Origin: Candidatus Poribacteria bacterium
GTDB taxonomy: Bacteria; Poribacteria; WGA-4E; WGA-3G
Length of the DNA: 64,000 nt
Reading direction: 5' to 3'
NCBI GenBank assembly: GCA_965205025.1
Contig: CBDBFU010000028.1
Coordinates: 96,001 to 160,000, forward strand
Shown: piece by piece, positions 6,992-35,945 of the stretch
How the letters are laid out: each line of letters begins with the position of its first letter
How positions within the stretch are numbered: position 1 is the first letter of the stretch
Notes under the pieces: generated by a model
Told to the model about the DNA's origin: nothing
What the model saw: the letters and a program-made list of their open reading frames with translations, nothing else
Databases searched by the model: none
Translations under genes and position numbers: made by a program

Positions 6992-9745
6992 ATGCGGAAA
7001 AATATTGTTGCTATGAGTAAACTCACAGATGAAGAATTGATTCGACACGTCCAGAATAGAGATCAGGATGCATTTTCTGAACTCATTACACGATGGACAC
7101 CACGGATAAAGGGTGTAGTCAGATCGAATTCCAGACAAAGACTCGACGCAGAAGAAATACACACCGACATCTGGATCGCTGTATGGCAAAATATAATTCA
7201 TCTTAGAAATATAGAGAGTTTCGGGGCATGGCTACATCGTATCGCCCATAACGCATGTAAACGATATTACACATTAACAAGACAATCTCGAAATGAAATC
7301 CCACATGAACATTCTGTGATTGTTGAACAGATGGAACAACAGGCTGCAGCACGATATAGAGAGAGACAACTGATGACAGATATAAAAGAAGCGGTACATC
7401 ATCTACCACAAAAGGTACGTTCAGTTGCTGAATTGTACTACTTAGAATCGTGGCACATCAAAGAAATTGCTGTCGAGTGTAATTTACCTATTGGAACTGT
7501 TAAGACCAAATTAAAGGAAATCCGAACACTTCTACGAAAGGAATTTGATGCGGAAGTCATAAAAGGAGCACCTATGACATCAAAAATAGAGCAACCGAAA
7601 AACACACCTACAAAGACTCACACAGGTAAAACGTCAAAAAACAGAATACCTGCGATTTTTAATGTTAATCCGAATGATCCGACTGGTGAAAGTTGGGGAG
7701 CACCTGAAGGGTTGTTTGCACGGTTCGGCAAAGGGGAGTCTAAAAGTGTTAAACTTTCTCCCGATGGGTCATATTTTGCAATGTCGACTGTATTCGGTCT
7801 GTGGTGGTATGATGTCTCTACAATGAAACCGATCTCTCTATGGGATCACATTGGAAGATTTGCCGTTAATATCGACTTTTCTCCAGATGGCAAGTGGGTT
7901 ATCCTAAGTACTGTAGCTCCATCTGTCAAGGTTTTGGAGGTCGAAACGGGTGAAACCGTGTTTGAAATAGATGTTCAGAAATCGTATGCTCGTTTCGCTT
8001 GTTCGTCAAATGGGAAATGGCTGGCGGTTGCTGATCAGGAAGGACCTATCAGGGTGTTAGATGTCCATACGGGGGAACAGATCGCTCAGATGGATTGTGG
8101 AGAACACAAGTGGAAAACGAATGACATTAAGCAACTTACTTTCACACCGGATGGAACGATGCTTGCTGCAATAGTTGTGCATCACAAGAAATACTCAGAA
8201 GACAATGAAGTTTTGAAACCAGATGACGAAGATACTCAAATCTATGTTTGGGATCCGGAAACAGGCAAGCCAATTGTGAAGTTTTCAGGAAAAACGTTTG
8301 AGATTTCACAGGACAGTCGTCTCATAGCGGGTGCATCAACTGATGGCACCTTGATCGATGATGAATTACTTTATAGCGATGTAGTTGTGTGGGATATCGC
8401 CACCAGTGAACGAATTACCTACTTCACGGAACATAGTAATTGGATAAACTCAATCGCTTTTTCACCTTGCGGAAAATACATCGCATCAGTTGACGAAATT
8501 TTACTGGTTTGGGAGATCGCTACAGGTACAGTACAGAAGCTAATTCCCAATGTGGAGGATCCATTCTATTCAAACACCGGACAACTATTCGCTATAGAAT
8601 ACCCCAATAAAACAGACGAAGCACCAGGATTTACCAACTATACTTTGGATGTGTGGAATGTTGAGACAAACGAAAAAACACTTGAGGTCTGTTCGGGTGT
8701 TGGGGGTTATTGGTTTGCCTACGACATAGCGAAAGCATACACAAACCAATTGATTGCGTTGCCTGCTGATGAAAGCATTACCAATAAAAAAGTTAAAGAC
8801 AAAGCTACAACTAATACTCCTATTTTAAATGTGGTGCATGAGCTCGATTTCTATGACCCTGGACCTGAGATTGACTGGATTGATGACCATACCCTTGTAG
8901 CACTTTCTTATGATGGATTAGAATTCTTTGATATTGATAAGGTCCGTCATAAAAACACACACTATTTTTATGATTTTGTTAGCGGTTTTGTTGTAATGCC
9001 TTCAGGTGAGATCCGGGTTATACTTTGTCATCATGAGGAGCGTTATAAAACGTGGCGTGTTCGGACACACGATAAACTTATCACAAAAATCCCTTTGCCA
9101 GATGAAATCTATGATAGGAATTGTGGTCCCGAATTTTCACCGATGGGGGATCGGATTGCGGTTGGATGTGAGATGGGGAATATCTATGTATGGAATATTG
9201 CCGATCCTGAAAATCCGTTAGTGCTGAAGGGACATAAAGCTGATAGTGGTGTATCAACGTTTTCTCCAGATGGACAAAGGCTGATAAGTTATGCTCGGGA
9301 TGAGTCTCGGCGTGTGTGGGATTTAGAGTCTTGTCAGGAAATCAATAGGTTGGAAATAGACAATGCTATTGATCCTGTTGGGCTTGTCTACTCTCCGTGT
9401 GGTAAATTCATTGCTGCTGAGTTGAGTACTGAGATCCGCATTTGGGATGCAGAAAAGCTGACATCGTTGCGTTCTATCCCGCAACCGAAACCGCATTACT
9501 GGCGTACAACTCCGCTTGTGTTCTCTCCTTGTAGTCAATTCATTGCTGGTACGACGTGGTGGGAGGAAGGTTATGAAAATTTGGCTGTCCGTGTCTGGGA
9601 TGTAGAGACGTGTGAACAGGTCGCAGATTTACGTGGACATGGTGATTTGTTGGTGAGTCTTGCCTTTTCTCCGAACGGCAAACTGTTGTCTGCTGGCTGT
9701 ATAGATAAAACAATTGTGTTGTGGGACTTAAAACCGTATCTATAG
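6992..9745 (+). CDS. ECF sigma-70 factor fused to WD40 propellers (no TM helix)
   Basis: Region 2 (DAEEIHTDIW..FGAWLHRIA) and region 4 (LPQKVRSV..KEIA..LPIGTVKTKL) followed by WD blades; ends WDLKPYL. Confidence 0.9.
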   Translation: MRKNIVAMSKLTDEELIRHVQNRDQDAFSELITRWTPRIKGVVRSNSRQRLDAEEIHTDIWIAVWQNIIHLRNIESFGAWLHRIAHNACKRYYTLTRQSRNEIPHEHSVIVEQMEQQAAARYRERQLMTDIKEAVHHLPQKVRSVAELYYLESWHIKEIAVECNLPIGTVKTKLKEIRTLLRKEFDAEVIKGAPMTSKIEQPKNTPTKTHTGKTSKNRIPAIFNVNPNDPTGESWGAPEGLFARFGKGESKSVKLSPDGSYFAMSTVFGLWWYDVSTMKPISLWDHIGRFAVNIDFSPDGKWVILSTVAPSVKVLEVETGETVFEIDVQKSYARFACSSNGKWLAVADQEGPIRVLDVHTGEQIAQMDCGEHKWKTNDIKQLTFTPDGTMLAAIVVHHKKYSEDNEVLKPDDEDTQIYVWDPETGKPIVKFSGKTFEISQDSRLIAGASTDGTLIDDELLYSDVVVWDIATSERITYFTEHSNWINSIAFSPCGKYIASVDEILLVWEIATGTVQKLIPNVEDPFYSNTGQLFAIEYPNKTDEAPGFTNYTLDVWNVETNEKTLEVCSGVGGYWFAYDIAKAYTNQLIALPADESITNKKVKDKATTNTPILNVVHELDFYDPGPEIDWIDDHTLVALSYDGLEFFDIDKVRHKNTHYFYDFVSGFVVMPSGEIRVILCHHEERYKTWRVRTHDKLITKIPLPDEIYDRNCGPEFSPMGDRIAVGCEMGNIYVWNIADPENPLVLKGHKADSGVSTFSPDGQRLISYARDESRRVWDLESCQEINRLEIDNAIDPVGLVYSPCGKFIAAELSTEIRIWDAEKLTSLRSIPQPKPHYWRTTPLVFSPCSQFIAGTTWWEEGYENLAVRVWDVETCEQVADLRGHGDLLVSLAFSPNGKLLSAGCIDKTIVLWDLKPYL

Positions 9746-9764
9746 AAAATAAGGAGGAAACATA

Positions 9765-11825
9765 ATGCAAAACCGAAAACCTACACAGTTGAATGTTGTC
9801 TCGGACGACCCTACAGGGAATACTTGGGCGTTGCCAAATGGGGCAATTGTGCGATTTGGAAAAGGTGATCTGGGTGGTGTTAAACTTTCCCTTGATAACA
9901 CGTATTTTGCCGTTGGCACTGGATCAGGTCTATGGTGGTATGATGTCCCTTCAATGATACCGATCTCACTATGGGAAACGGAAAAAGGATTGATTAATTC
10001 CATAGTTTTCTCTCCTGAGGGTAAGTGGATCGTTACAAACAATTGGAGTGGTACCCTTAAGGTGTTAGACATTCAAACTGGGAAGTGTGTTTATAAAATG
10101 GAAGATCAATGGGCATGGGACGGAATTGCCTTTTCGCCTAACGGAGGGCGAATTGCAATTGCAGGAGAAGACATTAAGGTGCTGGATATGCAGCGCGGCG
10201 TGTGCATTGCACAGATGGTTGAAGAGACACATGAAGATGTGTCAAGTCATATTGATCAACTTACCTTTTCGCCTAATGGACAATATGTTGCAGCTGAAGT
10301 TATAAATTCTGAGGTATATTCGGATGATGGCGAACTTCTTAATCCTGGAGCAGCGGGGAATCAAATTTATATCTGGGATTCAGGAACAGGAACACAGTTG
10401 GCAAAGTTCCCGAGTGAAAGATTTGCTTTTTCTCCTGATAGTCGTTTAGTAGCGTATGCAGCACCTGACGATAACGATCCTGACAGCGTTGACTGCTGCG
10501 TATCGGTATGGGATATAGCAGCAAAGGAACGGATTGCTCACTTTATAGGACATAGTGATTATATTAATGATATTATCTTTTCACCTTGCGGGAAGTTCAT
10601 CGTATCAAGTCGAAAAACGCTACGGGTATGGGATCTGGCAACGGGAAAACAGAAATCCGTTTTTTCAATGTCAACTGACGACGAGATCGAGTTTGTCCGT
10701 CCAAGACCGGTCTACTCACCAGAAGGTGTGCTACATGCAGAAGTGACTAACTATGACAAGCGGCTTATTGAAGTGTGGGATATAGAAAGCAACAAAAAAT
10801 TACAGATACTTGAGTGGCCCCATGGCATTGGAAGCGAGTGTTTTGCCTTATGTCCTGATTTGGTTATCATCTACGCATTATCTTCTGATTGCACGGATGG
10901 AAAAACGCACACATTTCCGGCACTTCGTGAGCCTCGTTTTCCGTGGCCGGAAGCGATGGCTGTTTGGTTGGATGATCAAACGCTTGCAAGCAGAAGCATT
11001 AGGCAAGGTATCGTTTTATGGGATATTCCGCAAAAACGGGTACGGGAAACATTGATGGATGACAAAAATTTTGACTATTTTACTATTTCGATTCACGGGA
11101 GTATATTGGCAATGGAAATTGGGGACACAATCAAAATATGGGATGCTGGTGTATCGCGTAAACCAATCGTGGAGTTTACCATACCGCCTGAGGAGTTGAT
11201 ACTTCACAGAGGCAGGTTCGCTCCTACAGGTGACCAGTTTGCCACTGCAAATAGAAATGGTGCATTCTATGTGTGGCATTTCGAATCACCGGAATATCCT
11301 ACAAAGTTTGCAGGTCATACAGACCGCGTTGATTCGCTTGTGTTTTCACCAGACGGCAAACAGCTGGTAAGTGGCTCATCAGATAAAACTGTCCGATTGT
11401 GGGATGTTGAAGCATGCGGGGAGATTGCTATATTGCCCATGGACGAACCTCGTATACCAATGGGAGTAACGTTTTCACCGTGTGGCAACCTAATTGCTGG
11501 TGGAATGGACAACAAAATCCGTTTGTGGTGTGCTAAGCAACTGACAATACTACACACAATACCGCAATCTGAGAATAACATGCGGACTTATGCTCTTGCT
11601 TTTTCACCTTGTGGAAAGTATCTGGCATCTGGCACTTGGTGGCAGCCAGGGATGGAGAAGATGGCTATTCGGATATGGGATGTTGCTACAGGTGAGAATA
11701 TTCATACATTTTGGGGGCATAACTCAGATGTGCAATCACTTGCCTTTTCACCAAACGGTACAATGCTGGCGAGTAGTGGTTTTGATGGTACAATTTTAGT
11801 GTGGGATTTGAAACCGTATCTATAG
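9765..11825 (+). CDS. Cytoplasmic WD40 repeat protein (WDLKPYL subfamily)
   Basis: AAGGAGG SD; LPNGAIVRFGKG motif; homologous to the propeller part of 6992..9745. Confidence 0.9.
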   Translation: MQNRKPTQLNVVSDDPTGNTWALPNGAIVRFGKGDLGGVKLSLDNTYFAVGTGSGLWWYDVPSMIPISLWETEKGLINSIVFSPEGKWIVTNNWSGTLKVLDIQTGKCVYKMEDQWAWDGIAFSPNGGRIAIAGEDIKVLDMQRGVCIAQMVEETHEDVSSHIDQLTFSPNGQYVAAEVINSEVYSDDGELLNPGAAGNQIYIWDSGTGTQLAKFPSERFAFSPDSRLVAYAAPDDNDPDSVDCCVSVWDIAAKERIAHFIGHSDYINDIIFSPCGKFIVSSRKTLRVWDLATGKQKSVFSMSTDDEIEFVRPRPVYSPEGVLHAEVTNYDKRLIEVWDIESNKKLQILEWPHGIGSECFALCPDLVIIYALSSDCTDGKTHTFPALREPRFPWPEAMAVWLDDQTLASRSIRQGIVLWDIPQKRVRETLMDDKNFDYFTISIHGSILAMEIGDTIKIWDAGVSRKPIVEFTIPPEELILHRGRFAPTGDQFATANRNGAFYVWHFESPEYPTKFAGHTDRVDSLVFSPDGKQLVSGSSDKTVRLWDVEACGEIAILPMDEPRIPMGVTFSPCGNLIAGGMDNKIRLWCAKQLTILHTIPQSENNMRTYALAFSPCGKYLASGTWWQPGMEKMAIRIWDVATGENIHTFWGHNSDVQSLAFSPNGTMLASSGFDGTILVWDLKPYL

Positions 11826-11874
11826 TTGTTAGCCTTTACAACAAACAAATCGAGTGCCTCAAAAATTGTGGATG

Positions 11875-12040
11875 TTTTAACTCCACGATCAACTTATGGG
11901 ATGTTGATACTGGTGAAAAAATGAAAACACTTATTGGACATACAAGTCATGTGACAGGTGTCGAGTTTAGTCCTGATGGGAAAACTCTTGTAAGTGGTAG
12001 TAGAGATGGCGCTGTGTTTATCTGGGAAATAAACATCTAA
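11875..12040 (+). pseudogene. Orphan C-terminal WD40 blade fragment
   Basis: Translates NSTINLWDVDTGEKMKTLIGH...GAVFIWEINI*; last ~65 nt near-identical to 3' end and downstream flank of 15271..16203. Confidence 0.75.
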
Positions 12041-12078
12041 TGTTTCATTACTTGATATGTGCAATATTAAAAGTTTTT

Positions 12079-12130
12079 CTCAATTATGACGATTCTGCAA
12101 CTAATTCCTATTCATATCGCGTCACCTATA
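12079..12130 (+). promoter_or_regulatory. Putative ECF sigma promoter
   Basis: CTCAATTATGAC..TGCAAC(12096)-N17-GCGTC(12119)ACCTATA; same motif upstream of other array genes. Confidence 0.65.
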
Positions 12131-12164
12131 AATGAAAACAGCAATTTGTTTATGGAGGGCTCTG

Positions 12165-14672
12165 ATGGAAAGAGACGACACACAATTGATTCATAGTATA
12201 TTGTCAGGTGATGAGGATGCTTTTAGTGAATTAGTTAGGAAACATGAAAAAAGTGTCCACGCACATGCATGGCGTAAAACAAAAGATTACCATATTGCAG
12301 AAGAAATAACACAAGATGCTTTTCTGCAAGCATATAAAAAACTTGCATCGCTGAGAAACCCAGATCAGTTCGGTGGATGGATATGTGTAATCACGGATCG
12401 CCTTTGCACAGCATGGTTACGCAAGAAAAAACTATATATGCAATCGTTGGAATCTGTCAGTAATGAGGTTCTGGAGAAAACAGCGTATACCTCCTATATT
12501 GCTGAACAACATGAAGAAGAAGTCGCTGAGCGTCGCCGTGAAATCATTGAAAGCCTTATGGCAATGCTGCCAGCGAATGAGCGCACAGCGATGGTTCTCT
12601 ATTACCTTGGAGAGATGTCTTGTGAAGAAGTTGGCAAGTATTTAGGTGTATCTACGAACACGGTGAAAAGTCGTCTTAGCCGTGCTCGAAATCGTTTAAA
12701 AGCTGTCAAATTTGATGCAAAACCCGATATCTTATACCAGGTTGAACACGATTCAATCCCCGCTAAAAGTAGAAAAAGCGGACGCATAATAGGAGTTAAA
12801 TCGATGCAGAACAATTTAGTACAAGAGCCGACACAATGGAACTTACCAGAAACTGCAAAAACCCGTCTCGGTAGAGGGAAAATACGTGAAATACAGTATT
12901 CTCCCGACGGAACAATTCTTGCAGTGGCAAGCAGTATCGGTATATGGCTCTATGATATGAAAACATATCAAGAAATTGCACTACTTACCGAACATCCAAG
13001 TCAAGTTTCCAGCGTGGCATTCAGTCCAGATGGATGCACTTTAGCAAGTGGAAGTATGGATGGAACCATTCATCTATGGGATATAAAAACAAGTTCGTAC
13101 AAAAACATCTTAGAATCCTCGGATAGAACCTTAAGTCCTTTTACTGTCAGGGCACCGAGTTTGGCATTTAGTCCAGATGGAAAAACGCTTGTATGTGGAT
13201 ATAAAAAAACTATCCATATTTTCAATGCAATCACAGGTGAACTTAAGAATTCACTGATTACAGATACTTCTGGAGTAATCACACACATCGAATTCAGTCC
13301 AGATAGTGAAACGATTATTTGTGGTAGTATATACGGTGAAATCTCGCTGTGGGATGCGATCACAGGAAAACACAAGAACACAATTCCAGAACCGAGTGAT
13401 TGTGAGCATGCCATTGCATTTAATACTATTGGGCAAACATACGCTGTGAGTAATGTTATATCGGAACAAGATTGTGGTATTTACATCAACGACTTAAATA
13501 CAGGTGAGCTCAAGAACAAACTCACTGGAGATTCAATGCGAGTTGACTGTTTGGCATTTAATCCCTCGGACAATACCATCGCTACAAGTACGGAGGAAGG
13601 AATCTATCTTTGGGATGCACACACTGGTAAACACAGATTCACACTCAATGACGACTCACCTGACATGGAATTTAGATCTGACTTGGAATTTAGTCCGGAT
13701 GGGAAAACACTCGCGAGTGAAAGATGTGATGGTATTATCCGCTTCTGGGATGCGCACACAGGTAATCCAAAATATGATACTTTCAATGGGCATAACGGGT
13801 TTACGGAATCTTTTGCTTTTACTTCAAATGGAAAGACTGTTACAATTGCTTATGGCTATGGTACAATCCGTGTATGGGACACTAACACAGGACACCTCAT
13901 TAAAACACACAATGAGTTTAGAGATCCGATGTTAAACTATGAAATAGAAAATTTAATGTGTATTCCTGATGGAAAAATATTGGCATGGGGAGCTGGTGGT
14001 GAATCGGGTGAGTCCCGCATGCAATTATGGGATACAGTCACAGGTGAACACATAAACATAAATCTACCAGCGAAATATGAATGGAAAAACCATAACTTGG
14101 AACTCAGTCCCGTCGGAAATACACTTGCAATTGTATTTGATGACAATCTGCTCAGATTATGCAATATGTTTACGGGTGAAGAAAAGTTTGTCCTATCCAA
14201 CCCTAACAAAGATTTTTTTGATATGGCATTTAGTCCTGATGGTAAAACCCTCGCAAGTGGGAGTGACGACAATACCGTCCGTCTTTGGGATATTGACATA
14301 GGTGAACACAAGAAAACACTTACAGGACATACAGATGGGGTGTGTGACTTAGCGTTCAGTCCTGATGGGAAAACACTTGCATGTGGAGGCGGTGAAATCA
14401 TCTTCTTATGGGATATAGATACAGGAGATAACACCAAGAAGTTAATAAAACCTACACATCGCGTGTGTGACTTAGCGTTCAGTCCAGATGGAAAAACGCT
14501 CGCAAGTGGAGGATTTGAGAGTAACATTAACTTGTGGGATCCACACACCGGTGAGCACATTAAAACATTGACAGGTCATACAGCCTGGGTAAGAAGTATT
14601 AAGTTCAGTCCAGATGGAAAATTTCTTGGAAGTAGAAGTGACGATGGGACTGTACTTATTTGGAATATATAG
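12165..14672 (+). CDS. ECF sigma-70 factor fused to WD40 propellers (no TM helix)
   Basis: GGAGG SD before ATG 12165 (track start 12132); IAEEITQDAFLQAY, FGGW, GVSTNTVKSRLSRAR; WD blades follow LPETAKTRLGRG. Confidence 0.9.
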   Translation: MERDDTQLIHSILSGDEDAFSELVRKHEKSVHAHAWRKTKDYHIAEEITQDAFLQAYKKLASLRNPDQFGGWICVITDRLCTAWLRKKKLYMQSLESVSNEVLEKTAYTSYIAEQHEEEVAERRREIIESLMAMLPANERTAMVLYYLGEMSCEEVGKYLGVSTNTVKSRLSRARNRLKAVKFDAKPDILYQVEHDSIPAKSRKSGRIIGVKSMQNNLVQEPTQWNLPETAKTRLGRGKIREIQYSPDGTILAVASSIGIWLYDMKTYQEIALLTEHPSQVSSVAFSPDGCTLASGSMDGTIHLWDIKTSSYKNILESSDRTLSPFTVRAPSLAFSPDGKTLVCGYKKTIHIFNAITGELKNSLITDTSGVITHIEFSPDSETIICGSIYGEISLWDAITGKHKNTIPEPSDCEHAIAFNTIGQTYAVSNVISEQDCGIYINDLNTGELKNKLTGDSMRVDCLAFNPSDNTIATSTEEGIYLWDAHTGKHRFTLNDDSPDMEFRSDLEFSPDGKTLASERCDGIIRFWDAHTGNPKYDTFNGHNGFTESFAFTSNGKTVTIAYGYGTIRVWDTNTGHLIKTHNEFRDPMLNYEIENLMCIPDGKILAWGAGGESGESRMQLWDTVTGEHININLPAKYEWKNHNLELSPVGNTLAIVFDDNLLRLCNMFTGEEKFVLSNPNKDFFDMAFSPDGKTLASGSDDNTVRLWDIDIGEHKKTLTGHTDGVCDLAFSPDGKTLACGGGEIIFLWDIDTGDNTKKLIKPTHRVCDLAFSPDGKTLASGGFESNINLWDPHTGEHIKTLTGHTAWVRSIKFSPDGKFLGSRSDDGTVLIWNI

Positions 14673-14845
14673 AAACGTCTAAGAATATATGCACATATTC
14701 TTAGATTTTACAATTATAGTGAAATCTGAAAATATGTGCACACTCCCTGGTAGATGCGGTTGCTAACCAATGCAGAGGATCACACGGGGAATCATGGCGA
14801 ATACCATACGCGTATTCACCAAAAGGCATTGCCAGATGGCAACCC

Positions 14846-14915
14846 CCTTGCAAGAGGCAGTAGAGATGGCACTGTCCTATTGTGGGATCTTACTACCTCA
14901 GTCCTTAATCAATAG
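14846..14915 (+). pseudogene. Orphan C-terminal WD40 blade fragment
   Basis: Translates LARGSRDGTVLLWDLTTSVLNQ* with no upstream gene body. Confidence 0.6.
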
Positions 14916-15039
14916 ACATATTATCTATTTTTAAAAGAAACAGCCTTAAAGTGCATCCATGAATGTGTATATAGTGGCAGACATTGTGTTTCAATAATTC
15001 TAACAAGTAGCCTTCGTTATATCAACCCTGATAGACATC

Positions 15040-15083
15040 ATTAAGAGATCATAGTCAGTATTATTCAACTATGATCTCTTAAT
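15040..15083. repeat. Perfect 16-bp inverted repeat (hairpin or operator)
   Basis: ATTAAGAGATCATAGT-N12-ACTATGATCTCTTAAT. Confidence 0.85.
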
Positions 15084-15129
15084 TGTGACAATCTTGCACC
15101 CAACTCGCTCAGAAAACGCGTCCCCTATA
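15079..15129 (+). promoter_or_regulatory. Putative ECF sigma promoter
   Basis: TTAATTGTGAC..TGCACC(15095)-N17-GCGTC(15118)CCCTATA. Confidence 0.6.
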
Positions 15130-15270
15130 TTGGAAACTAAAATAGACCGATATTCATTTAATAGGACACTTTTGAGTTGTAAGGGACCTCCGATTCCCGG
15201 TTATTAAATGCAGTTCGTCGCGATTCGGAGATAGTTCCTTGATAACACAGCAATTTAAGGAGAGAAAACT

Positions 15271-20987: not shown

Positions 20988-23713
20988 ATGGTAGATGAAG
21001 ATGTTCAACTAATTAATAGAATTTTATCAGGTGATGACGACGCTTTTTCCACATTAGTTGAAAAGTATCAAAAAGGAATTCATGCTTTTGCATGGCGGAG
21101 GATTGGGGATTATCACTATGCTGAAGAAATTACTCAAGATACTTTCGTGCAAGTCTATAAAAACCTTTCGTCACTCAGAAATCCTTATCAGTTTGCGGGA
21201 TGGTTATATGTGATTGCTAATCGCCTATGTCTTAAGTGGTTACAAAAGAAAAAAATGAACGTTCAATCGTTAGAGGACACACCCATGGCAGAAATAGAAC
21301 AATATTCATATAACAAGTATATATTGGAAGAGCGAAAGACGAATGCCAGAGAAAGTGGTCTTGAGATAGTTAAGAAACTTCTGGATAAACTTCCTGAAAG
21401 TGAACAAACTGTCACAACCCTTTACTATTTAGGTGAAATGACAGCAAAAGAGATAAGTAAGTTCTTAGGCGTGTCGGTAAACACGATTAAGAGTAGACTT
21501 CGCCGAGCGCGCATTCGTTTACAGGAAGAAGAACTACCGTCTGAAGAAATATTGAACTCTGTTCAATTCTCTACCAATCTTAGTGAAAACATCCTACAGC
21601 GAGTTGTTGATATAAAACCGACTCCGATTCCAAGTGCAAAGCCAACACTTCCATGGGTAGTTTTCAGTGTTGCTACCTTTTTAGTTATGTTATTAGGTGT
21701 TTCCAATCAATACTTTGATCATTTCCAAAAACCTTATAGTTTTGACACACAATCTGAACAGACAGTTGAAATTACTGATGCCCATGTTTTTCTTGACACA
21801 GATGTAAGACCCTCTAATCTAAATCAAGTAGGACGAACTGATACTGATGGCAATAACAGTGGTATCAGTGTTCAAGATTCTGACTCGGTTATAGCGTCTG
21901 ATGAACAGGATTGGCACTTGCGAGGCTTACCCGTAGGTGTGAAAGCACGGATCGGTAAAGGCTTCATAACTGGAAGAATCTCGATTTCAACTGATGAAAA
22001 ACGTATGGCGATACCGTGTAGTATCGGTATTTGGATATATGACACAGAAACAGATAAAGTACTTGATCTAATCACAGGACATTCTAATTGGTATAGGAAC
22101 GTTGCGTTTAGTCCAGACGATATCCTGTTGGCGAGTGTGCGGGGGATAAAGTAGTACATATGTGGGATGCACGCACAGGTACTGAACTTTGGACCATGCA
22201 AGGTCATAAGGACATAACAAAGGACGTGGTATTCAGTCCGGATGGTTCACTATTAGCAAGTGGAAGTGAAGACGAAACCATCCGTCTATGGGATGTGCGA
22301 ACCGGCACACATATTAGGACGTTAATTGGACACATTAGAGGTGTAACAAGCATTGCATTCAGTTCAAACGGTGAAACGTTAGCGAGTGGCAGTGACGACA
22401 AAACTTTACGGTTGTGGGATGTGCATACAGGGGCATTAGTGCAGACAATCAGGGGATATGAAACTGCTGGAATAAATTCCGTTGCGTTTAGTCCGGATGG
22501 TAGGACAATTGCGAGTGCAAGTGATCACAATACCTTTCATCTATATGACGTACAGACAGGTAAATTACGCTACAAGTTGGTAGGAAATAATGGCTCAGAT
22601 GTCCATACGGGTATTGATTTTGTTAACTTTAGTCCAGATGGGTCAAAATTGGCAACTGCAAATCGAGATCGTACAATACGTCTGTGGGATGCACATACGG
22701 GGGATTTGATACAGGTGCTCAATGGACACAGGTCACATGTTCTCAGCGTTGTATTTAGTCAAGACGGTAAAACGTTGATAAGCAGTAGCAGAGACAACAC
22801 CGTGCGGTTGTGGGATGTAGATACTGGAGAAGAACTACGTAAGATGGTAGATCATATGCGGGGTTTACGTAATGTAGCGTTCAGTCCGGATGGGAAAACA
22901 CTTGCAAGCTGTACTTGGGGCAATAACGTTCGGTTATGGGATGTGCAAACGTGTTCACTGCTTCAGTCACTGGAGGGACATACCAAGTCTGTAACAAACG
23001 TTGCGTTCAGTCCGGATGGACAGACATTAGCGAGTAGCAGTTGGGACAATACCGTTCGTTTATGGGATATAAAAACGGGCATTTCGCTTCCACCTCTGGT
23101 TGGACATAATAAAGGGGTCATGAGCATTAACTTTAGTCCGAATAGCAATACTCTTGCAAGTGGCAATTATGATGGCACCATCTATTTGTGGGATACGCAA
23201 ACAGGTAAACGGAAGTATACGATGACAGCGAGAAATTGGGTCAATAGCGTTGCGTTCAGTCCAGATGGTTCTGTACTTGCAAGTGGTAGCTGGGACAATA
23301 CTGTGCGTACGTGGGATGTGAATACCGGCACATCGCTTTTGACATTGGATACAAATCAGAATGTCAATTCTGTCGTGTTTAGTCCGGACGGGAAGATGCT
23401 TGCATCTGGAGATCATAACAGCACCTTGCATCTATGGGACGCTTTATCGGGTGAACCGCTTTGGACGTTGGCGGAACAACGAGGAAGGATCAATAGTATA
23501 GATTTCAGTCCGAATGGAAAAATACTGGCAAGTGGAGGTGATGATGGCACTGTGCTGTTGTGTGATGTACTCACTGGCACTCCTTTTCGGACACTTAATA
23601 AACATCGAGGTCCTGTTGATAGCGTTATGTTCAGTCCGGATGGTAAAACATTGGCGAGTGCAAGTGGTTGCACCGTATTGCTGTGGGAAATTAGATCTGA
23701 TACGGTGAATTAG
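20988..23713 (+). pseudogene. ECF sigma-TM-WD40 fusion split by a frameshift near 22140
   Basis: 20988..22154 (sigma regions 2/4, TM LPWVVFSVATFLVMLLGV, first blades) continues in another frame as 22160..23713; removing GT from GAGTGTGCGGGGGAT restores ASAGDKVVHMWD. Confidence 0.8.
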
Positions 23714-27233: not shown

Positions 27234-27314
27234 TCATATTACATTCCAATTGCTGTGATAATACCGAATCAAATTACCTGAAAATCCACTATTCTAATTC
27301 ATATTAATCAATAA

Positions 27315-28133: not shown

Positions 28134-28240
28134 TTATCTTTAATAACCTACCTATCTAATCTTACCTGACAGATATTATGTAGTCTATCAATCCAACGAT
28201 GGACTGGAATCCTATATTTGCCATTTATTTATAGAAGGTG

Positions 28241-28380
28241 TCAACAGCAGAGAATCTCGTCACTTTCTGAGAACACACCACATGTGCTATAATGTTAGGT
28301 GTATTTAACAGGATAGCACTCAATTAACCAGCGGTGGACATATAGGTACGATCTGCCTTTGGGATTTGAAATAGTTTATT
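28241..28380 (+). pseudogene. Degraded C-terminal WD40 fragment (WDLKPYL subfamily)
   Basis: QDSTQLTSGGHIGTICLWDLK* resembles QDSTLLASGGHDGTIYLWDLKPYL at the end of 28510..30507. Confidence 0.6.
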
Positions 28381-28509
28381 AGTTCTGTACTTTACTCTCG
28401 CGAATCATCTATAGCATTTTAATCCTACATGTATTGCCAAACTCCAAAAGTCAATTTCGCATAACATATCTGAGTGCAAAGTTACTAAGACAATTTCCTT
28501 ATGTCATAA

Positions 28510-30507
28510 ATGGACAAAATATTGAAAAACAAAACTACTTCCAATCTTAGTTCACTTGATAACAGAGATGTGACAACTTGGGCACTTCCTGAAGGTGCAC
28601 ATGCGAGATTAGGACGCGGACGTGCCAACGATATGGCATTTTCACCTAACGAACAATATTTGGTTATCGGCACAGCAATTGGACTTTGGTTATATGATCT
28701 ACCGACTTTATCTCCAATTGCTCTTTGGGATACCGAACGTGGAATGATTAGTTCTGTTATAGTTTCACCAGATAATCAACGGATTGTCACACATACTTTT
28801 TCCGAATCCATAAAGATATGGGATATTCGAGAAGGCATCTGTATAACTCAGATCGAGAAGCAAAACGAACGAGATATAACCAATCCTATCTTTTCTCAAG
28901 ACGGAGAGTACATTGCTACAATTAGTAATGAAAGAAATTGGAAAATTTACTTCTGGTGTTCTCATACAGGTAGGAAACTGAAAGAAACAGTAATTAAGCC
29001 GCCTCGTGAAGTTTATCCTATCTGTTTTTCACTTGATTTGAATTTGTTAGCAGGTAAGACCAATGATCCAGATAATGTGGACAGAAATAACGGGAATGAT
29101 TCAATTATAATTTGGAATGTAAATTCTGGAGAACAAATTACCATCATTGAGAATTATCCAGAACCAGTGCGAAGGTTCTGCTTTTCTCCATGCGGACAAT
29201 ACCTTGCAGCAGGTAATTACCATGGTAAAATACATGTATGGGACATCACACGCGAACAACTGGAAGCTACTTATTCTGAATATGGAAACGCACAGATGTA
29301 TCCATATTATCTTACAGATGGTGAATTAATTGCTTGTGCTGTTTCTGATCGCGTAGCTGAGATTTGGAATGTAAGAAAGCATGAGAAAATAAATGAATTT
29401 GCGCATCGTGGTAATACTGGAATAGTTAGTTTTTCGGACAGTGGTACACAAATGGCACATGCAAGTCCGAGCGAAATCAAAATCTGGAGGAAAAGTAATA
29501 ATTCTGATATTCATACTGTTTCATCTCTCCATGGACATCTCACAACGATGGACACAATAGTTTTTTCAAAGAACGAGAAGACGCTTGCTGCCGGATTTTG
29601 GAATGACAATGTCCTTCTATGGGATCTTGCCAGTAGACGGTCATACCGACCAGACAGTGAAAAACTACCTGGGACTTCGCATAATGTTTATAGATCTCCT
29701 AACGATACTATTATTACTACCAACAGATTAAAAGAAAAAATAATTGTATATGAGCTTGGTAAGAATGAACCGATTGCAGAATTGGTTGGTCCAAAAGAGG
29801 GTTTAGGTCGCGCCCAAGCATACACTTCCACAGGAGCAAGGATAGCAAATGTCGACAGAGACGATAACATACATATCTGGGAACGATTATCAACCTTATA
29901 TGACAGGTCAAAAACCGAAACTTGGAAAAAGATCGCTACGATCCATAATGATGAAGAATTTACTTACGGATTAAGGTTTAGTCCGACTGGAATGGCGTTT
30001 AGTCCAGATGGAAAACAGCTCGCAACTATATCAAGATCACAGGATTGTAAAGCCTGTTTGTGGAATGTTGATACAGGGATACAGATTGCTGAGCTTCCTA
30101 TAACCCCACCATCAAGAAGGGGAATGTATCGTGATTATGATACTGGGATAGCATTTTCGCCAGATGGCAATATCATCGCAGGTGGAATGTGGCACGGGAT
30201 TGTCCTGTGGAATGCAATAGATGGAAAATCCATTAAATACATCCCACACTCGGAGGAATATCAACGACCTATCACATTATGCTTTTCGCCGTGCGGACAG
30301 TATTTGGCTTCTGGGGCATGGTGGACACCAGATTTACAAAAGGTGTCTATCCGAATATGGAAGGTTCCAACAGGTGAGAATCTCACCACTTTTTGGGGAC
30401 ATACCACAGATGTCCAATGTTTTGCATTTTCACAGGACAGCACTCTATTAGCAAGTGGTGGACACGATGGTACGATTTACCTGTGGGATCTGAAACCTTA
30501 TTTATAG
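28510..30507 (+). CDS. Cytoplasmic WD40 repeat protein (WDLKPYL subfamily)
   Basis: WALPEGAHARLGRG, FSPCG blades, ASGAWW, ends WDLKPYL. Confidence 0.9.
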   Translation: MDKILKNKTTSNLSSLDNRDVTTWALPEGAHARLGRGRANDMAFSPNEQYLVIGTAIGLWLYDLPTLSPIALWDTERGMISSVIVSPDNQRIVTHTFSESIKIWDIREGICITQIEKQNERDITNPIFSQDGEYIATISNERNWKIYFWCSHTGRKLKETVIKPPREVYPICFSLDLNLLAGKTNDPDNVDRNNGNDSIIIWNVNSGEQITIIENYPEPVRRFCFSPCGQYLAAGNYHGKIHVWDITREQLEATYSEYGNAQMYPYYLTDGELIACAVSDRVAEIWNVRKHEKINEFAHRGNTGIVSFSDSGTQMAHASPSEIKIWRKSNNSDIHTVSSLHGHLTTMDTIVFSKNEKTLAAGFWNDNVLLWDLASRRSYRPDSEKLPGTSHNVYRSPNDTIITTNRLKEKIIVYELGKNEPIAELVGPKEGLGRAQAYTSTGARIANVDRDDNIHIWERLSTLYDRSKTETWKKIATIHNDEEFTYGLRFSPTGMAFSPDGKQLATISRSQDCKACLWNVDTGIQIAELPITPPSRRGMYRDYDTGIAFSPDGNIIAGGMWHGIVLWNAIDGKSIKYIPHSEEYQRPITLCFSPCGQYLASGAWWTPDLQKVSIRIWKVPTGENLTTFWGHTTDVQCFAFSQDSTLLASGGHDGTIYLWDLKPYL

Positions 30508-30532
30508 AATTTAGAGAACATCTCTAATAATT

Positions 30533-30766
30533 CTATAGTTTGGACAATTAGTTTGGACAATTTCTGAGAGGTGCTTCACCTTTTTTCAAAGGGTTTCTGG
30601 TTTTTCGCCACGTGTCTCACGCTAATCCAACTCTAAGAAAAATAAACTCGGATGGACTAAAGCGTAGCCCCAGCGGGGCGAAATGTGTGTAGAAACGTCA
30701 TATCTCCTCAAGATCCAAGCCCCAGAGGGGCGAAATGTATATCGCTTCAAACTGTCCAAATTATAG
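30533..30766. mobile_element. MITE with CTATAGTTTGGACA TIRs
   Basis: CTATAGTTTGGACA / TGTCCAAATTATAG ends; two internal GCCCCAG(C/A)GGGGCGAAATGT hairpin units. Confidence 0.7.
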
Positions 30767-30849
30767 TAATAATGTAGTACTTCCATTTTTTTCTAGATAA
30801 TCTTGAAAGGAGAATCTGAAATTGTTAGGAGAAAATGGATCCGTAACTC

Positions 30850-30900
30850 CTCAATTATGACACTCATGCAACCCACCAATCACAAAAAAGCGTCACCCAA
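30850..30900 (+). promoter_or_regulatory. Putative ECF sigma promoter
   Basis: CTCAATTATGAC..TGCAAC(30867)-N17-GCGTC(30890). Confidence 0.65.
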
Positions 30901-30930
30901 TTGTAACACCTATATTATGCCGAGGTAAAA

Positions 30931-33141
30931 ATGGAAGTAAACTATTCTAAACTAATCCAAAAGATCTTAGCTGAAGATGAAACTGCTTTTACAGTATTAG
31001 TCCACAAATTCCAAAAAGGGATTCACGCACTCGCATGGAAGAAAATAGGGGATTATCAGATAGCCGAAGAGATAACTCAAGTTTTACCATGGGGTATTGT
31101 TGCCACATCTACAATTATTATGATTCTGTTATTTGGCATAGGTAATCAACTCATCAGTCCATATCAGAACCCATATAATGTTGAAGCACAATCTGAGTCG
31201 TCAATTGAGATTGTTGATGCTACAAGAGTACAAGATATAATACCGCAGCAAAAAGTACAAAATCGAAATGGAAAGAATATTCAGGAAGGTCAAAATCAGA
31301 ATGAAGGTTTATCAGAAAAAGGAGAAAACATGCAGAACGACTCCATAGATGATACTATGCAATGGTACTTACCCAAGAATGCAATTGCGCGTTTTGGTAA
31401 GGGCGGTATAAGAGATATATTGTATTCTTCCGATGGATCAACGTTAGCTGTCGCAGGAAAAATTGGTCTTTGGCTTTACGATACATCCACTTATGAAGCT
31501 ATCGACATGATACCGTCTGAATCTACTGAATTTAATTGCTTAGCTTACAGTGTTGATGGAAATTTCTTTGCAGCAGGCGATAGGCAAGGAACTATACATT
31601 TATTAAATAAAAAGACTGGAGAGAAAATCGAGATAAATGCTCATACAAGTTGGGTGAATGGACTATCCTTCAATCCTAAGGGTACAATCCTGGCAAGTGC
31701 TGGTCGGGATTTTCTTCTTCAACTTTGGGATGTTAACACCGGTAAACAAATAAAAACTCTAAAAGAAACAAACTCAGAAATTCAATGTATTACCTTTAGT
31801 CCAGATGGCAACACTTTGGCAAGTGGAGAGGGTAATGTTATTCGTTTCTTCGATATCCATAGTGGCAATGAAAAACCCCTTAATGCTCACACCAGCTGGG
31901 TTGATGATTTAGCTTACAGTCCTGATGGAAAATCAATACTAAGCATCAGTGATGATAACCAAATTTTTCTTTGGGATGTCAATACACTTCAAAAGAAGAT
32001 ATTCGATGGACCAACAGAAGGCTACCCTACATCTGTGGATTTTAATCCAGATGGGAGGATTATCGCATCCGGAGGAATGGATAATAAGGTTCATTTATGG
32101 CATGCACCTACAGGTGAATACATTACAGCGTTTTCTGGTCACACATGGTATATCGTGAGTGTTGTGTTTAGTCCGGATGGAAAATCTATAGCAAGTGCTG
32201 CAGAAGATGGTACAATACGATTTTGGGATGTAGAAACGGGGACACTGAAGAACTCACTCACTGGACACCACAATATCTATTCAGTTGCATTCTATCCGAA
32301 TGGTACTCAATTAATAAGTGCTAATGAAGATGGAACACTAAATGTTTGGAGTATTAAATCCAGAAGTCTTGTGAGGAGCATTACAAGTGAATATGAGGAG
32401 TTAAATAGAGTTGTTTTTAATGAAAATGGTGATATTATTGCTTGTGGTATTGAAGAAATCGTAATCATAAATAAAGATAATCCGGAACAACAGAGAGTAC
32501 TCTCAAAAATTAAAAAAGGTCTTCGCAGTTTGGAAATTACATCAGATGGAAAAACCTATGCAGCTGTTCATGAAAACAAGAATATTTATCTATTGAATTC
32601 AAAAACAGGCAAACTCAAGAATACACTATCTGGTCATACTGATTATATCTATAGTACTGCATTCAATCCCGATAATACTCTATTAGCAAGTTGTAGTTAT
32701 GATAATACTGTCAGACTTTGGGATGTTGAAGCCGGAAAGCAAAAGAGGATTCTCATGGGACATAAAACACGGGTTAAGACCGTTACGTTTAGTCCTGACG
32801 GGAAAACACTTGCAGGTGGAGATGGTGATAAGAACAGTGATAAGAACATATATCTGTGGGATATTAATACTGGTGAGATAAAGATAACACTTATCGGTCA
32901 TTCGGAGTGGGTCTCCTGTTTAGCTTACAGTCCTAATGGTAATATAATCGCAAGTGCTGGTAGGGACAAGATAATCAATCTGTGGAATCCTATTACTGGG
33001 GAGAAACTTAAAACTCTTTCTGGACATACTGCTTGGATTAGAGATATTGCATTTAGTCCTGATGGTGGAATATTAGCAAGTACAGGTGATGATGGAACAG
33101 TACTTCTTTGGGAAATAAATTATTCAGAACTGATACCATAA
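30931..33141 (+). CDS. Membrane-anchored WD40 protein; sigma-deleted tandem copy of 33240..35945
   Basis: First 50 aa match the neighbouring sigma fusion, then the sequence jumps in frame to the TM helix. Confidence 0.85.
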   Translation: MEVNYSKLIQKILAEDETAFTVLVHKFQKGIHALAWKKIGDYQIAEEITQVLPWGIVATSTIIMILLFGIGNQLISPYQNPYNVEAQSESSIEIVDATRVQDIIPQQKVQNRNGKNIQEGQNQNEGLSEKGENMQNDSIDDTMQWYLPKNAIARFGKGGIRDILYSSDGSTLAVAGKIGLWLYDTSTYEAIDMIPSESTEFNCLAYSVDGNFFAAGDRQGTIHLLNKKTGEKIEINAHTSWVNGLSFNPKGTILASAGRDFLLQLWDVNTGKQIKTLKETNSEIQCITFSPDGNTLASGEGNVIRFFDIHSGNEKPLNAHTSWVDDLAYSPDGKSILSISDDNQIFLWDVNTLQKKIFDGPTEGYPTSVDFNPDGRIIASGGMDNKVHLWHAPTGEYITAFSGHTWYIVSVVFSPDGKSIASAAEDGTIRFWDVETGTLKNSLTGHHNIYSVAFYPNGTQLISANEDGTLNVWSIKSRSLVRSITSEYEELNRVVFNENGDIIACGIEEIVIINKDNPEQQRVLSKIKKGLRSLEITSDGKTYAAVHENKNIYLLNSKTGKLKNTLSGHTDYIYSTAFNPDNTLLASCSYDNTVRLWDVEAGKQKRILMGHKTRVKTVTFSPDGKTLAGGDGDKNSDKNIYLWDINTGEIKITLIGHSEWVSCLAYSPNGNIIASAGRDKIINLWNPITGEKLKTLSGHTAWIRDIAFSPDGGILASTGDDGTVLLWEINYSELIP

Positions 33142-33163
33142 GAACTATGAATCAACTGCACCT

Positions 33164-33210
33164 TTATGACACTCTTGCAACCCACCAATCACAAAAAAGC
33201 GTCACCCAAT
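33164..33210 (+). promoter_or_regulatory. Putative ECF sigma promoter
   Basis: TTATGAC..TGCAAC(33176)-N17-GCGTC(33199). Confidence 0.65.
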
Positions 33211-33239
33211 TGTAACACCTATATTATGCCGAGGTAAAA

Positions 33240-35945
33240 ATGGAAGTAAACTATTCTAAACTAATCCAAAAGATCTTAGCTGGGGATGAAACTGCTTTTA
33301 CAGTATTAGTCCACAAATTCCAAAAAAGTATTCATGCACTCGCATGGAAGAAAATAGGGGATTATCAGATAGCCGAAGAGATAACTCAAGACACATTCCT
33401 AAAGGCATACAAAAAACTTGATACACTAAAGAATCCAGATCAATTCCCGGGTTGGTTATATGTAATTGCAAACCGACATTGTAATTCATGGTTAAGAAAC
33501 CAATCTAAAAGGAAACAATCCCTTGAAATCACTGATGAAATAATAGAAGAAACCTCATATTCAAAATATATTAGTGATGAAAAAGAATATGAAGCAATTG
33601 AGCACAGACGACATATAGTACAAAAACTTATGGAAAAACTACCTGAGAGTGAACGTACAGTTATGGTTCTTCACTATCTGGGAGAAATGAGTTGTGAAGC
33701 AATTAGCAGATTCTTAGGTGTATCACCGAACACTGTAAAAAGTAGACTTACCCGGGCAAGGAATCGTTTAAAGTATGAAGAAACACTATTTCAGGATACC
33801 TTTGGAAGTGTTCAACTATCTCATAATCTTTCTGAAACAATCAGTAAACAGATTGAGAAGATAAGCCATAATACACCTAACCATTTCAAACCTTTACCAT
33901 GGGGTATTGTCGCCACATCTACAATTATTATGATTCTGTTGTTTGGCATAGGTAATCAGCTCATCAGTCCATATCAGAATCCATATAATGTTGAAGCACA
34001 ATCTGAGTCGTCAATAGAGATTGTTGATGCTCCAAGAGTACAAGATATACTACCGCAGCCAAAGGTACAAAATCGAAATGGAAAGAATATTCAGGAAGGT
34101 CAAAATCAGAATGAAGGTTTATCGGAAGAGGGAGAAAACATGCAGAACGACTCCATAGATGATACTATGCAATGGAACTTACCCAAGGATGCAATAGCGC
34201 GTTTTGGTAAGGGTGGTATAAGAGATATATTGTATACGCCAGATGGATCAACGTTAGTTGTCGCAGGAAAAATTGGTCTTTGGCTTTACGATACATCCAC
34301 TTATGAAGTAATAGATATGATACCGTTAGAATCTACTGAATTTAATTGCTTAGCTTACAGTGCTGATGGAAATCTCTTTGCAGCAGGCGATAGGCTGGGA
34401 ACTATACATTTAACAAATAAAGAGACAGGGAATAAAACTGAGATAAATGCTCATACCAGTTGGGTGAATGGACTATCCTTCAATCCTGATGGTACAATCC
34501 TGGCAAGTGCTGGCCGTGACTTTATTATTCAACTTTGGGATGTTAAAACCGGTAAACATATAAAAACTCTCAAAGAAACGAAATCAGAAATTCAATGTAT
34601 TACCTTTAGTCCAGATGGCAACACTTTGGCAAGTGGAGAGGATAATGTTATTCGTTTCTTCGATATCCATAGTGGCAATGAAAAATCCCTTAATGCACAT
34701 TCCAGCTGGGTTGATGATTTATCTTACAGTCCTGATGGAAAATCAATACTTAGTATCAGTGATGATAACTCTATTTTTCTTTGGGATGTCAATACACATG
34801 AAAATATGATGATATTTGCTGGACCAGTTGAAGGTTATCTTACATCTGTGGATTTTAATCCAGATGGAAGGATTATAGCATCTGGAGGGATGGATAATAA
34901 GGTTCATTTATGGCATGGACCTACAGGTGAATACATTACAGCGTTTTCTGGTCACACATCATATATCACCAGTGTTGTGTTTAGTCCGGATGGAAAATCT
35001 GTAGCAAGTGCTGCAGAAGATGGTACAATACGATTTTGGGATGTAGAAACGGCGACACTGAAGAACTCACTCACTGGACACATAGACAATATCTATTCAG
35101 TTACATTCTTTCCCAATGGTACACAATTAATAAGTGGGAATGCTGATGGAACACTAAATGTTTGGAATATAAAATCCAAAAGTCTTGTGAAGAGCATTAC
35201 GAGTGATTATAAAGAGTTAGATAGAGTTATTTTTAATGAAAATGGTGATATTATTGCTTGTGGTACAGAAGAAATCGTAATCATAAATAAAGATAATCCG
35301 GAACAACAGAGAGTACTCTCAAAAATTAAAAAAGGTCTTCACAGTTTTGAAATTACATCAGATGGAAAAACCTATGCGACTGGTCATGAAGACAAGAATA
35401 TTTATCTCTGGGATTCAAAAACAGGTAAACTCAAGAATACACTATCTGGTCATACTGATTATGTCTATAGTACTGCATTCAATCCCGATAATACCCTATT
35501 AGCAAGTGGTAATGATGATAATACTGTCAGACTTTGGGATGTTGAATCTGGAAAGGAAAAGATGATTCTCACGGGACATACAAAAGGGGTTAAGACTGTT
35601 ACGTTTAGTCCTGACGGGAAAACACTTGCAAGTGGAGATGGTAATAAGAACATATTTCTTTGGGATATTAATACTGGTGAGAAAAAGATGACACTCATCG
35701 GTCATTCGGAGTGGGTGCACTGTTTAGCTTACAGTCCAAATGGTAATATACTCGCAAGTGCTGGTATTGACAAGGGAATCAATCTGTGGAATCCTATTAC
35801 TGGGGAAAAACTTAAAACGCTTTCTGGGCATACTGCTTGGATTAGAGATATTGCATTTAGTCCTGATGGTGGAATATTAGCAAGTACAGGTGATGATGGA
35901 ACAGTACTTCTTTGGGAAATAAATTATTCAGAACTGATACCATAA
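33240..35945 (+). CDS. ECF sigma-70 factor - TM helix - WD40 propellers
   Basis: IAEEITQDTFLKAY, FPGWLYVIA, GVSPNTVKSRLTRAR; TM LPWGIVATSTIIMILLFGIG; about 14 WD blades. Confidence 0.92.
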   Translation: MEVNYSKLIQKILAGDETAFTVLVHKFQKSIHALAWKKIGDYQIAEEITQDTFLKAYKKLDTLKNPDQFPGWLYVIANRHCNSWLRNQSKRKQSLEITDEIIEETSYSKYISDEKEYEAIEHRRHIVQKLMEKLPESERTVMVLHYLGEMSCEAISRFLGVSPNTVKSRLTRARNRLKYEETLFQDTFGSVQLSHNLSETISKQIEKISHNTPNHFKPLPWGIVATSTIIMILLFGIGNQLISPYQNPYNVEAQSESSIEIVDAPRVQDILPQPKVQNRNGKNIQEGQNQNEGLSEEGENMQNDSIDDTMQWNLPKDAIARFGKGGIRDILYTPDGSTLVVAGKIGLWLYDTSTYEVIDMIPLESTEFNCLAYSADGNLFAAGDRLGTIHLTNKETGNKTEINAHTSWVNGLSFNPDGTILASAGRDFIIQLWDVKTGKHIKTLKETKSEIQCITFSPDGNTLASGEDNVIRFFDIHSGNEKSLNAHSSWVDDLSYSPDGKSILSISDDNSIFLWDVNTHENMMIFAGPVEGYLTSVDFNPDGRIIASGGMDNKVHLWHGPTGEYITAFSGHTSYITSVVFSPDGKSVASAAEDGTIRFWDVETATLKNSLTGHIDNIYSVTFFPNGTQLISGNADGTLNVWNIKSKSLVKSITSDYKELDRVIFNENGDIIACGTEEIVIINKDNPEQQRVLSKIKKGLHSFEITSDGKTYATGHEDKNIYLWDSKTGKLKNTLSGHTDYVYSTAFNPDNTLLASGNDDNTVRLWDVESGKEKMILTGHTKGVKTVTFSPDGKTLASGDGNKNIFLWDINTGEKKMTLIGHSEWVHCLAYSPNGNILASAGIDKGINLWNPITGEKLKTLSGHTAWIRDIAFSPDGGILASTGDDGTVLLWEINYSELIP

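Follow-up and report, generated by a model that had tools for sequence, protein, structure and literature searches.

Four neighbouring genes of a Candidatus Poribacteria genome carry, in frame and shortly ahead of a C-terminal WD40 propeller, an ATG codon preceded by a Shine-Dalgarno (SD) sequence. The genes, numbered 1 to 4 in their order along the DNA, lie in a stretch of 64,000 nucleotides (C28:96001-160000, referred to as the window) from a genome of 5.66 Mb whose G+C content is about 38%, and three of them are fusions in which the propeller follows a sigma factor domain of the extracytoplasmic function (ECF) type. The conservation of these SD+ATG pairs, at positions 7574, 12804, 31330 and 34140, makes it probable that they are real internal translation starts which would give a sigma-free propeller beside the fusion and which selection would have kept. 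Confidence is higher for 7574 and 12804, in the two genes without a membrane helix; initiation at the membrane-anchored pair 31330/34140 appears doubtful.

The internal sites and their hosts

Candidatus Poribacteria live as symbionts in sponges and are uncultured; no role has been assigned to their many WD40 proteins. In this genome 73 matches to Sigma70_r2 were found, about 45 of them in long ECF sigma fusions, and dozens of such fusions per genome were present in all 40 genomes of the genus that were searched (40/40). The propellers open with a cap motif, W.LP.GA..R.GKG, which occurs in 115 open reading frames (ORFs) of the genome and is preceded there by a signal peptide, a short cytoplasmic N-terminus or a sigma domain. 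Genes 1, 2 and 4 match Sigma70_r2 and Sigma70_r4_2 above the family cut-offs and TIGR02937 (sigma70-ECF) with 72-96 bits against a cut-off of 42.9. These matches cover residues ~5-190 without regions 1.1 or 3, as expected of group 4 (ECF) sigma factors, and are followed on the C-terminal side by WD40 (PF00400) and many other propeller families. By hydropathy scan, gene 4 and most paralogues have a single membrane helix in the stretch that joins sigma to the propeller, whereas genes 1 and 2 have none. The chain of gene 4 and most paralogues thus runs from sigma through a short conserved segment and one membrane helix to an outer domain.

The four in-frame pairs were found where the initial annotation had placed them (Table 1). 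The ATG precedes the cap by 10 residues at 12804, 31330 and 34140 and by 39 residues at 7574, and three of the predicted products begin with MQN, as does the free-standing propeller at 9765 (MQNRK), the latter as had been described. The description of the hosts as four fusion genes stands for genes 1, 2 and 4 and had to be given up for gene 3, a tandem duplicate of gene 4 from which most of the sigma domain is missing. Likewise, the three independent cases counted initially become two in the window because 12804 and 31330/34140 occupy the same homologous column. The loss in gene 3 is due to an in-frame deletion of ~167 residues which removes most of sigma, and no Pfam sigma family matches residues 1-133 of its product. 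Its propeller is 86% identical to that of gene 4, and the 30 nt 5' of the two gene starts are identical.

The genome uses SD sequences: the 16S tail contains CCTCC, and an SD-like motif precedes 1351/3165 first ATGs of long ORFs (at least 5 nt in 644/3165), compared with 1269/21969 internal in-frame ATGs genome-wide (at least 5 nt in 183/21969). At each of the four sites of the window an in-frame start codon follows an SD-like sequence at a working distance in an SD-using organism. The internal SDs equal or exceed those of the 5' starts in strength (AGGA-N8 at 6992, none at 12132). Among the 45 in-frame internal ATGs of the four genes, eight have an SD-like motif; these are the four sites in question, three weak ones inside propellers, and ATG 12165 (GGAGG-N6). 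Gene 2 probably begins at the last of these, since ATG 12132 has no SD.

Enrichment at the domain junction

The frequency of such pairs was assessed over the last 45 codons ahead of the cap in the genome's 27 sigma-WD40 fusions, with codon shuffles that keep the linker composition as the null model. An SD-like motif precedes 11 of the 19 junction ATGs and is strong in 7, whereas the shuffles give 1.3 and 0.19, respectively, and none of 2000 reaches the observed values. Within the propeller bodies only 22/209 ATGs have an SD-like motif and 3/209 a strong one. When GTG and TTG are included, an SD-linked start is found in 13/27 genes (null mean 3.0, maximum 11 in 1000 shuffles). The pairs at the junction exceed chance.

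Conservation of the site in gene 1

A match to the gene 1 junction was found in 38 of the 40 genomes searched, among them the one from which the window comes. The alignment comprises 47 unique fused homologues (loci L061-L106 and two paralogues from the same genome), after omission of duplicates and of L085, which has a stop codon in its sigma part. The aligned codon is ATG in 46/47 sequences. The Gly codon at -3 is GGA in 46/47, while the 17 other conserved Gly columns have 0-88% GGA. The Arg codon at -4 is AGA in 31 of 31 Arg, with AAA in 12 further sequences, against a regional AGA usage of 30%. Codon -2 encodes G, A, E, V, D, K or T (2.6 bits), and its first base is nevertheless G in 40/47 as compared with 31% in the background. 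The linker on either side of the site is variable (1.6-2.9 bits).

In a five-codon scan of synonymous identity, windows -5, -4 and -3 rank 1-3 of 452 (0.93 vs 0.56 +/- 0.11), and windows +1 and +2 rank 4 and 6. Codon changes were also counted on a tree built without the site. On this tree, the Gly codon has a single synonymous change, the smallest count among the 101 codons that are conserved and 4- or 6-fold degenerate (mean 9.6, range 1-17), and the Arg codon none, compared with 2-15 elsewhere; residue -2 has changed 15 times, but the first base of its codon only 5 times. In 20 full-length gene 1 orthologues, both G192 and M195 are invariant. In an AlphaFold2 model of gene 1 (mean predicted local distance difference test score, pLDDT, 73.9), the last sigma4 helix extends to residue 185 and the first strand begins at 243, with pLDDT <50 at residues 186-216. 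Met195 is accordingly placed, in the model, at the very start of a disordered linker, 10 residues past the last sigma4 helix. As read from the codons, the conservation at 7574 is that of selection on the RNA sequence, not on the protein. Conservation of the SD and Met codons with synonymous constraint across homologous fusions, proposed initially as a check, is strongly evident here and moderately so at the two further sites described below.

The sigma cassette of gene 1 is shared with paralogues. When the C14 paralogue (minus strand, oriented 462152-464876) was compared with window 6900-7620, identity broke off ~45 nt after ATG 7574; in the 5' direction, high identity extends ~60 nt upstream of the sigma cassette (~105 nt at lower identity). 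The propellers of the two genes are ~65% identical, and 48% at the protein level. The mosaic pattern indicates gene conversion or cassette exchange among paralogues, to judge from this comparison. The two gene 1 paralogues of the same genome were therefore rejected as independent support, as their sigma cassette, the site included, is a 92-96% identical mosaic. In the omitted orthologue L085 (G009:C1:2295922-2299497), a TAA interrupts the sigma part, the internal AAGGA-N6-ATG is retained and the propeller ORF is open for 691 codons; the genome concerned has few family members.

The shared site ten residues before the cap

The column that holds 12804, 31330 and 34140 is ATG or GTG in 46/48 homologues. 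In the gene 2 orthologues without membrane helix it is always ATG (14/14), preceded by AGGAG-N8 in 3 and AAGGA-N9 in 11. Among the 34 membrane-type homologues it is ATG in 12, GTG in 20, GCG in 1 and CAA in 1, with an SD-like motif at 8-9 nt in 30/34. Where this column encodes Val, it never uses GTT, GTA or GTC, although GTG makes up only 18.6% of the Val codons there. Eight changes at this column are counted on the tree. As support for a GTG start in the membrane type, this Val-codon test was set aside because it is confounded by two codon-invariant Val columns in the neighbouring linker. The scan of synonymous identity peaks shortly 5' of the column, at window -6 in the pooled set (rank 1/273) and at windows -9 to -7 in the gene 2 set (ranks 2-4 of 336). 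Within the gene 4 lineage the ATG is kept in gene 3 and in L032 (84%). Constraint at this column is, on these alignments, weaker than at 7574.

Further internal sites in the family

A third position is used in a further group without membrane helix, consisting of the genome's own C26 copy and 11 orthologues, in which a Met 20 residues before the cap begins the sequence MENQK. The codon is ATG in 12/12 and has an SD-like motif in 11/12; windows 0 to +2 of the synonymous-identity scan rank 1-3 of 364.

A different in-frame site, present in none of the window genes, is found right after sigma region 4 (..RLKKEE.M IREAL..), with AAGGAGG-N5-ATG. It is carried, for example, by the plus-strand C2 ORFs 344205-347208, 374068-377101 and 377346-380094, as well as by L019 (a minus-strand ORF, residue 189), L022 and L024. 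The SD and the start codon co-vary at this site. Among the 18 sequences with ATG at this position, 10 have a strong SD, 8 a weak one and 0 lack it; 2 of the 3 sequences with GTG have a strong SD; and among 20 sequences with a non-start codon, 0 have a strong SD, 3 a weak one and 17 none. The preceding K-E-E is encoded as AAG GAG GAA ahead of ATG and as AAA GAA GAA ahead of GTC. A start at this position would yield an anti-sigma-like segment, membrane helix and sensor free of sigma.

Origin of the sites

Free-standing cytoplasmic paralogues begin with AAGGAG-N8-ATG GAA AAC at -20 or with MNNDS or MNTDN at -10. Because the SD and start of the -20 and -10 sites match those of these free-standing genes, the sites look like captured starts of once independent propeller genes. 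In one sigma-less C26 derivative (minus strand, oriented 87109-89248), only the ~15 last residues of sigma region 4 remain in frame 5' of AAGGAG-N8-ATG (MENQK), and the "internal" ATG is the only start. The gene 1 group does not fit this pattern. Its nearest non-fused relative is the 9765 gene (37-43% identity of the propeller), and in the column that matches the free-standing start (-19; relatives 9765 and a C4 gene) a start codon remains in 3/47 homologues and an SD in none. Instead, 46 SD-linked starts lie at -34 to -41, with four further SD-linked start codons at -46.

Alternative explanations

It is very improbable that chance accounts for the sites. Purine-rich linkers (Lys, Glu, Gly) could yield SD-like words near occasional Met codons, and the SDs are indeed spelled by K-G, R-G or Q-G codon pairs, with the three weak pairs inside the propellers as further examples; yet shuffles of the same linker composition do not reproduce the observed number, and the site is conserved across ~40 genomes. 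The shuffle test and the conservation of the 7574 site led to the rejection of this explanation. An element other than a start is also improbable, be it a protein motif ([RK]-G-x-x-M, for example for docking or cleavage) or an SD-like elongation pause that gives sigma time to fold before the propeller emerges. SD-like motifs within ORFs have been proposed to cause ribosome pausing, the site does lie at a domain boundary, and G192 and M195 are invariant residues. However, a protein motif fails to account for the exclusive use of GGA and AGA or for a G-first codon where the residue is G, A, E, V or D, and a pause site would work without an ATG or GTG at a constant distance of 4-9 nt, whereas the start is kept in 46/47, 14/14, 12/12 and 32/34 sequences of the four groups.

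That the sites are pure relics is unlikely, although this explanation has more to recommend it. In this case, the ribosome-binding site (RBS) and start of the fused propeller gene would be left over without useful initiation, preserved by recency, gene conversion or amino-acid constraint. The match of the -20 and -10 sites to the true starts of free-standing paralogues would be expected, as would the patchy occurrence (13/27 fusions of the genome) and the state of the membrane-type column, which is Met or Val, mostly with only AAGGA or AGGA as SD, and has lost the start in L033. The family also recombines often, as seen from the mosaic sigma cassette, deletion derivatives and truncated copies. 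The fossil alternative of the initial annotation thus holds as the origin of the -20 and -10 sites, but it explains neither the constraint nor 7574. Nowhere in the gene 1 alignment is synonymous conservation higher than at the SD codons, although the linker around them varies freely; the column of the free-standing start has decayed in this group, with another site kept ~38 residues before the cap; and peaks of synonymous conservation recur at three separate sites. Since a neutral relic decays whereas the 7574 site is conserved, 7574 is not likely to be one.

Several observations weigh against internal initiation as a kept feature of the family and have to be set beside the evidence above. As 14/27 fusions of the genome have no SD-linked start before the cap, the feature is not obligatory for the family, and even in the gene 1 group homologue L102 lacks the internal start. 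The homologues are related and their cassettes mosaic, so the counts overstate independence; the gene 1 cassette and that of the C14 paralogue are 92-96% identical to ~45 nt past the ATG and ~65% thereafter. The mRNA near 7574 is weakly structured without being unusually open (rank 33/101 windows in 46 homologues). A search of sequencing runs returned no RNA run with the locus, only contig-level DNA runs that cover part of it. At the -10 column the tree-aware test of the Gly codon is only suggestive in the pooled set (within the lowest 4/45 columns) and places the membrane type within the lowest 11/58; in the gene 2 group the codon shows 0 changes, as do 10/66 columns. This group is small and the test has little power in it, which also applies to the MENQK group, where the codon ranks 27/107. 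Two other Val columns of the membrane-type linker are codon-invariant as well, and the use of GTG in 20/20 cases could therefore be partly inheritance. In the membrane-anchored genes, it is hard to see what a cytoplasmic copy of a domain that otherwise faces outward would do. The pair 31330/34140 has the least support, because L033, the closest diverged orthologue of gene 4 (79%), has no start there. The idea of two isoforms put forward in the initial annotation is thus backed comparatively to different degrees: strongly at 7574, moderately at the shared -10 column, and least at 31330/34140.

Proposed mechanism

If the pairs are internal starts, each mRNA would give two proteins, the full sigma-linker-propeller chain and a sigma-free propeller (723, 622, 603 and 601 aa in genes 1 to 4). 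The arrangement would have arisen when a sigma cassette was fused onto a free-standing propeller gene, with the captured RBS and start then retained by selection; we infer that ribosomes initiate at the internal sites and that the short protein accumulates. The predicted N-terminus of the short gene 2 product would be (M)QNNLVQEPTQWNLPETAK, while the tryptic peptide of the long form starts one residue earlier, with S. The best guess for the function of the short forms is that the free propeller, with binding surfaces like those of the tethered one, may compete with it for the ligand or partner, or join the same assembly, and set the threshold or gain of the sigma response. ArcB-C and CheA-S, each of which acts beside its long form, offer analogies. 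In the genes with a membrane anchor, the short form would remain in the cytoplasm, whereas the tethered propeller would be exposed on the outer side. A complex prediction for the gene 1 sigma domain (1-190) and the propeller isoform (195-917) gave a score of 0.00, which is not evidence either way.

Genes of the window

The plus-strand run of WD40 propeller genes spans window 2200-35945. Just 5' of gene 1, a trypsin-like peptidase domain is fused to a long TPR array (4072-6156). The run also contains a broken fusion, which is either a pseudogene or an assembly error. A natural split between sigma and propeller was ruled out here, as the frameshift falls in a G-run inside the first propeller blades.

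Table 1. Propeller genes, internal SD+ATG pairs and predicted short products in the window
Feature	Position	Strand	Remarks
Gene 1: ECF sigma (sigma2+sigma4, residues 1-185), disordered linker, double WD40 propeller	6992-9745	+	917 aa, no membrane helix
Gene 1 internal site: AAGGAG (7563-7568)-N5-ATG 7574, Met195	7563-7576	+	in frame
Gene 1 predicted sigma-free product: linker and double propeller	7574-9745	+	723 aa, open frame
Free-standing propeller paralogue	9765-11825	+	686 aa; start AAGGAGG-N7-ATG, MQNRK
Gene 2: ECF sigma, linker, WD40 propeller, no membrane helix	12132-14672	+	from ORF list and family matches; 835 aa if begun at ATG 12165
Gene 2 internal site: AGGAG (12791-12795)-N8-ATG 12804	12791-12806	+	predicted product 12804-14672, 622 aa, MQNN
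Frameshifted fusion of sigma, membrane helix and propeller	20988-23713	+	ORFs 20988-22154 and 22160-23713; G-run 22141-22145
Free-standing cytoplasmic-type propeller paralogue	28510-30507	+	665 aa
Gene 3: tandem copy of gene 4	30931-33141	+	50 N-terminal residues, membrane helix, linker and propeller retained
Gene 3 internal site: AAGGAG (31319-31324)-N5-ATG 31330	31319-31332	+	predicted product 31330-33141, 603 aa, MQND
Gene 4: ECF sigma, anti-sigma-like segment, one membrane helix, linker, WD40 propeller	33240-35945	+	901 aa
Gene 4 internal site: GGGAG (34130-34134)-N5-ATG 34140	34130-34142	+	predicted product 34140-35945, 601 aa, MQND

Relation to known systems

The closest parallel considered is arcB of E. 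coli, in which an internal start gives ArcB-C, as was shown by ribosome profiling, western blot and mutation (Meydan et al., 10.1101/520783). As in the genes described here, an SD-like sequence and a start codon (GUG in arcB) are located at a domain boundary of a signalling protein, the C-terminal domain is made as a separate soluble protein, and SD and start are conserved across species. ArcB-C has been proposed to set a response threshold (10.1101/520783). Unlike arcB, which encodes a sensor kinase and was studied experimentally, the host here is an ECF sigma fusion known from sequence alone, and the feature recurs in many paralogues per genome at three different positions. Further in-frame internal starts are reported in infB, clpB and mrcB (10.1101/520783), and the long and short forms of SpaO as well as V. 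cholerae Fha add to the bacterial genes with dual isoforms. All of these give a full-length and a C-terminal isoform from one ORF, as is proposed here, and there the forms cooperate; the proteins are unrelated to sigma fusions, and their function has been shown whereas here it is predicted.

With respect to the host proteins, ECF sigma factors with a C-terminal WD40 extension are known as ECF57 and ECF01-Gob of Planctomycetes (PMC8999054, PMC5766207, PMC8567305, PMC7826278). They share with the poribacterial fusions the combination of sigma2 and sigma4, a long WD40 extension that is presumed to be regulatory, and many copies per genome; the passages on these groups mention no internal start, and the host here belongs to Poribacteria, not to Planctomycetes. 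For ECF57, a link between sigma2 and sigma4 through two conserved Cys has been proposed (PMC8999054), whereas C89 is the sole invariant Cys of the gene 1 sigma domain (20 gene 1 orthologues, the group to which this comparison is confined). The extensions of ECF41, ECF42 and ECF57 are thought to regulate sigma by contact or by partner binding (PMC8999054). In IutY-type sigma/anti-sigma hybrids (ECF243), sigma is released by regulated proteolysis (PMC8999054). In these hybrids, as in gene 4 and most paralogues, one polypeptide links sigma through a short segment and a single membrane helix to an outer domain; in contrast to IutY, the outer domain here is a WD40 propeller, and the passage on IutY in PMC8999054 reports no internal start.

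A literature search that covered titles, abstract openings and text passages, without supplements, returned no description of an internal start in an ECF sigma fusion. The new element is thus the putative internal start in such a fusion, while WD40-extended ECF sigma factors, sigma/anti-sigma hybrids and internal starts at domain boundaries were already known.

Implications

ECF sigma factors with fused regulatory domains have been described as one-component systems. Should the fusions also give the extension by itself, their regulation would have to be modelled with a partner that acts in trans and comes from the same mRNA. The case is unusually testable because the SDs are canonical. It would also show clearly how, in nature, a gene fusion can take over the RBS of the downstream gene and how selection can then keep it.

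A broader and more tentative view, which we would not favour at present, is that Poribacteria have a large family of "two-in-one" sigma genes in which conserved nested starts at either module boundary, following sigma region 4 or directly ahead of the propeller, give a sigma-free sensor that would act in trans, as decoy or anti-sigma, on the fusion from which it derives. If true, a complete pair of sigma and regulator would be produced at fixed stoichiometry from a single ORF. Each module would keep its own RBS and stay expressible when recombination cuts or reshuffles the genes, which would help to explain the explosive expansion of the family.

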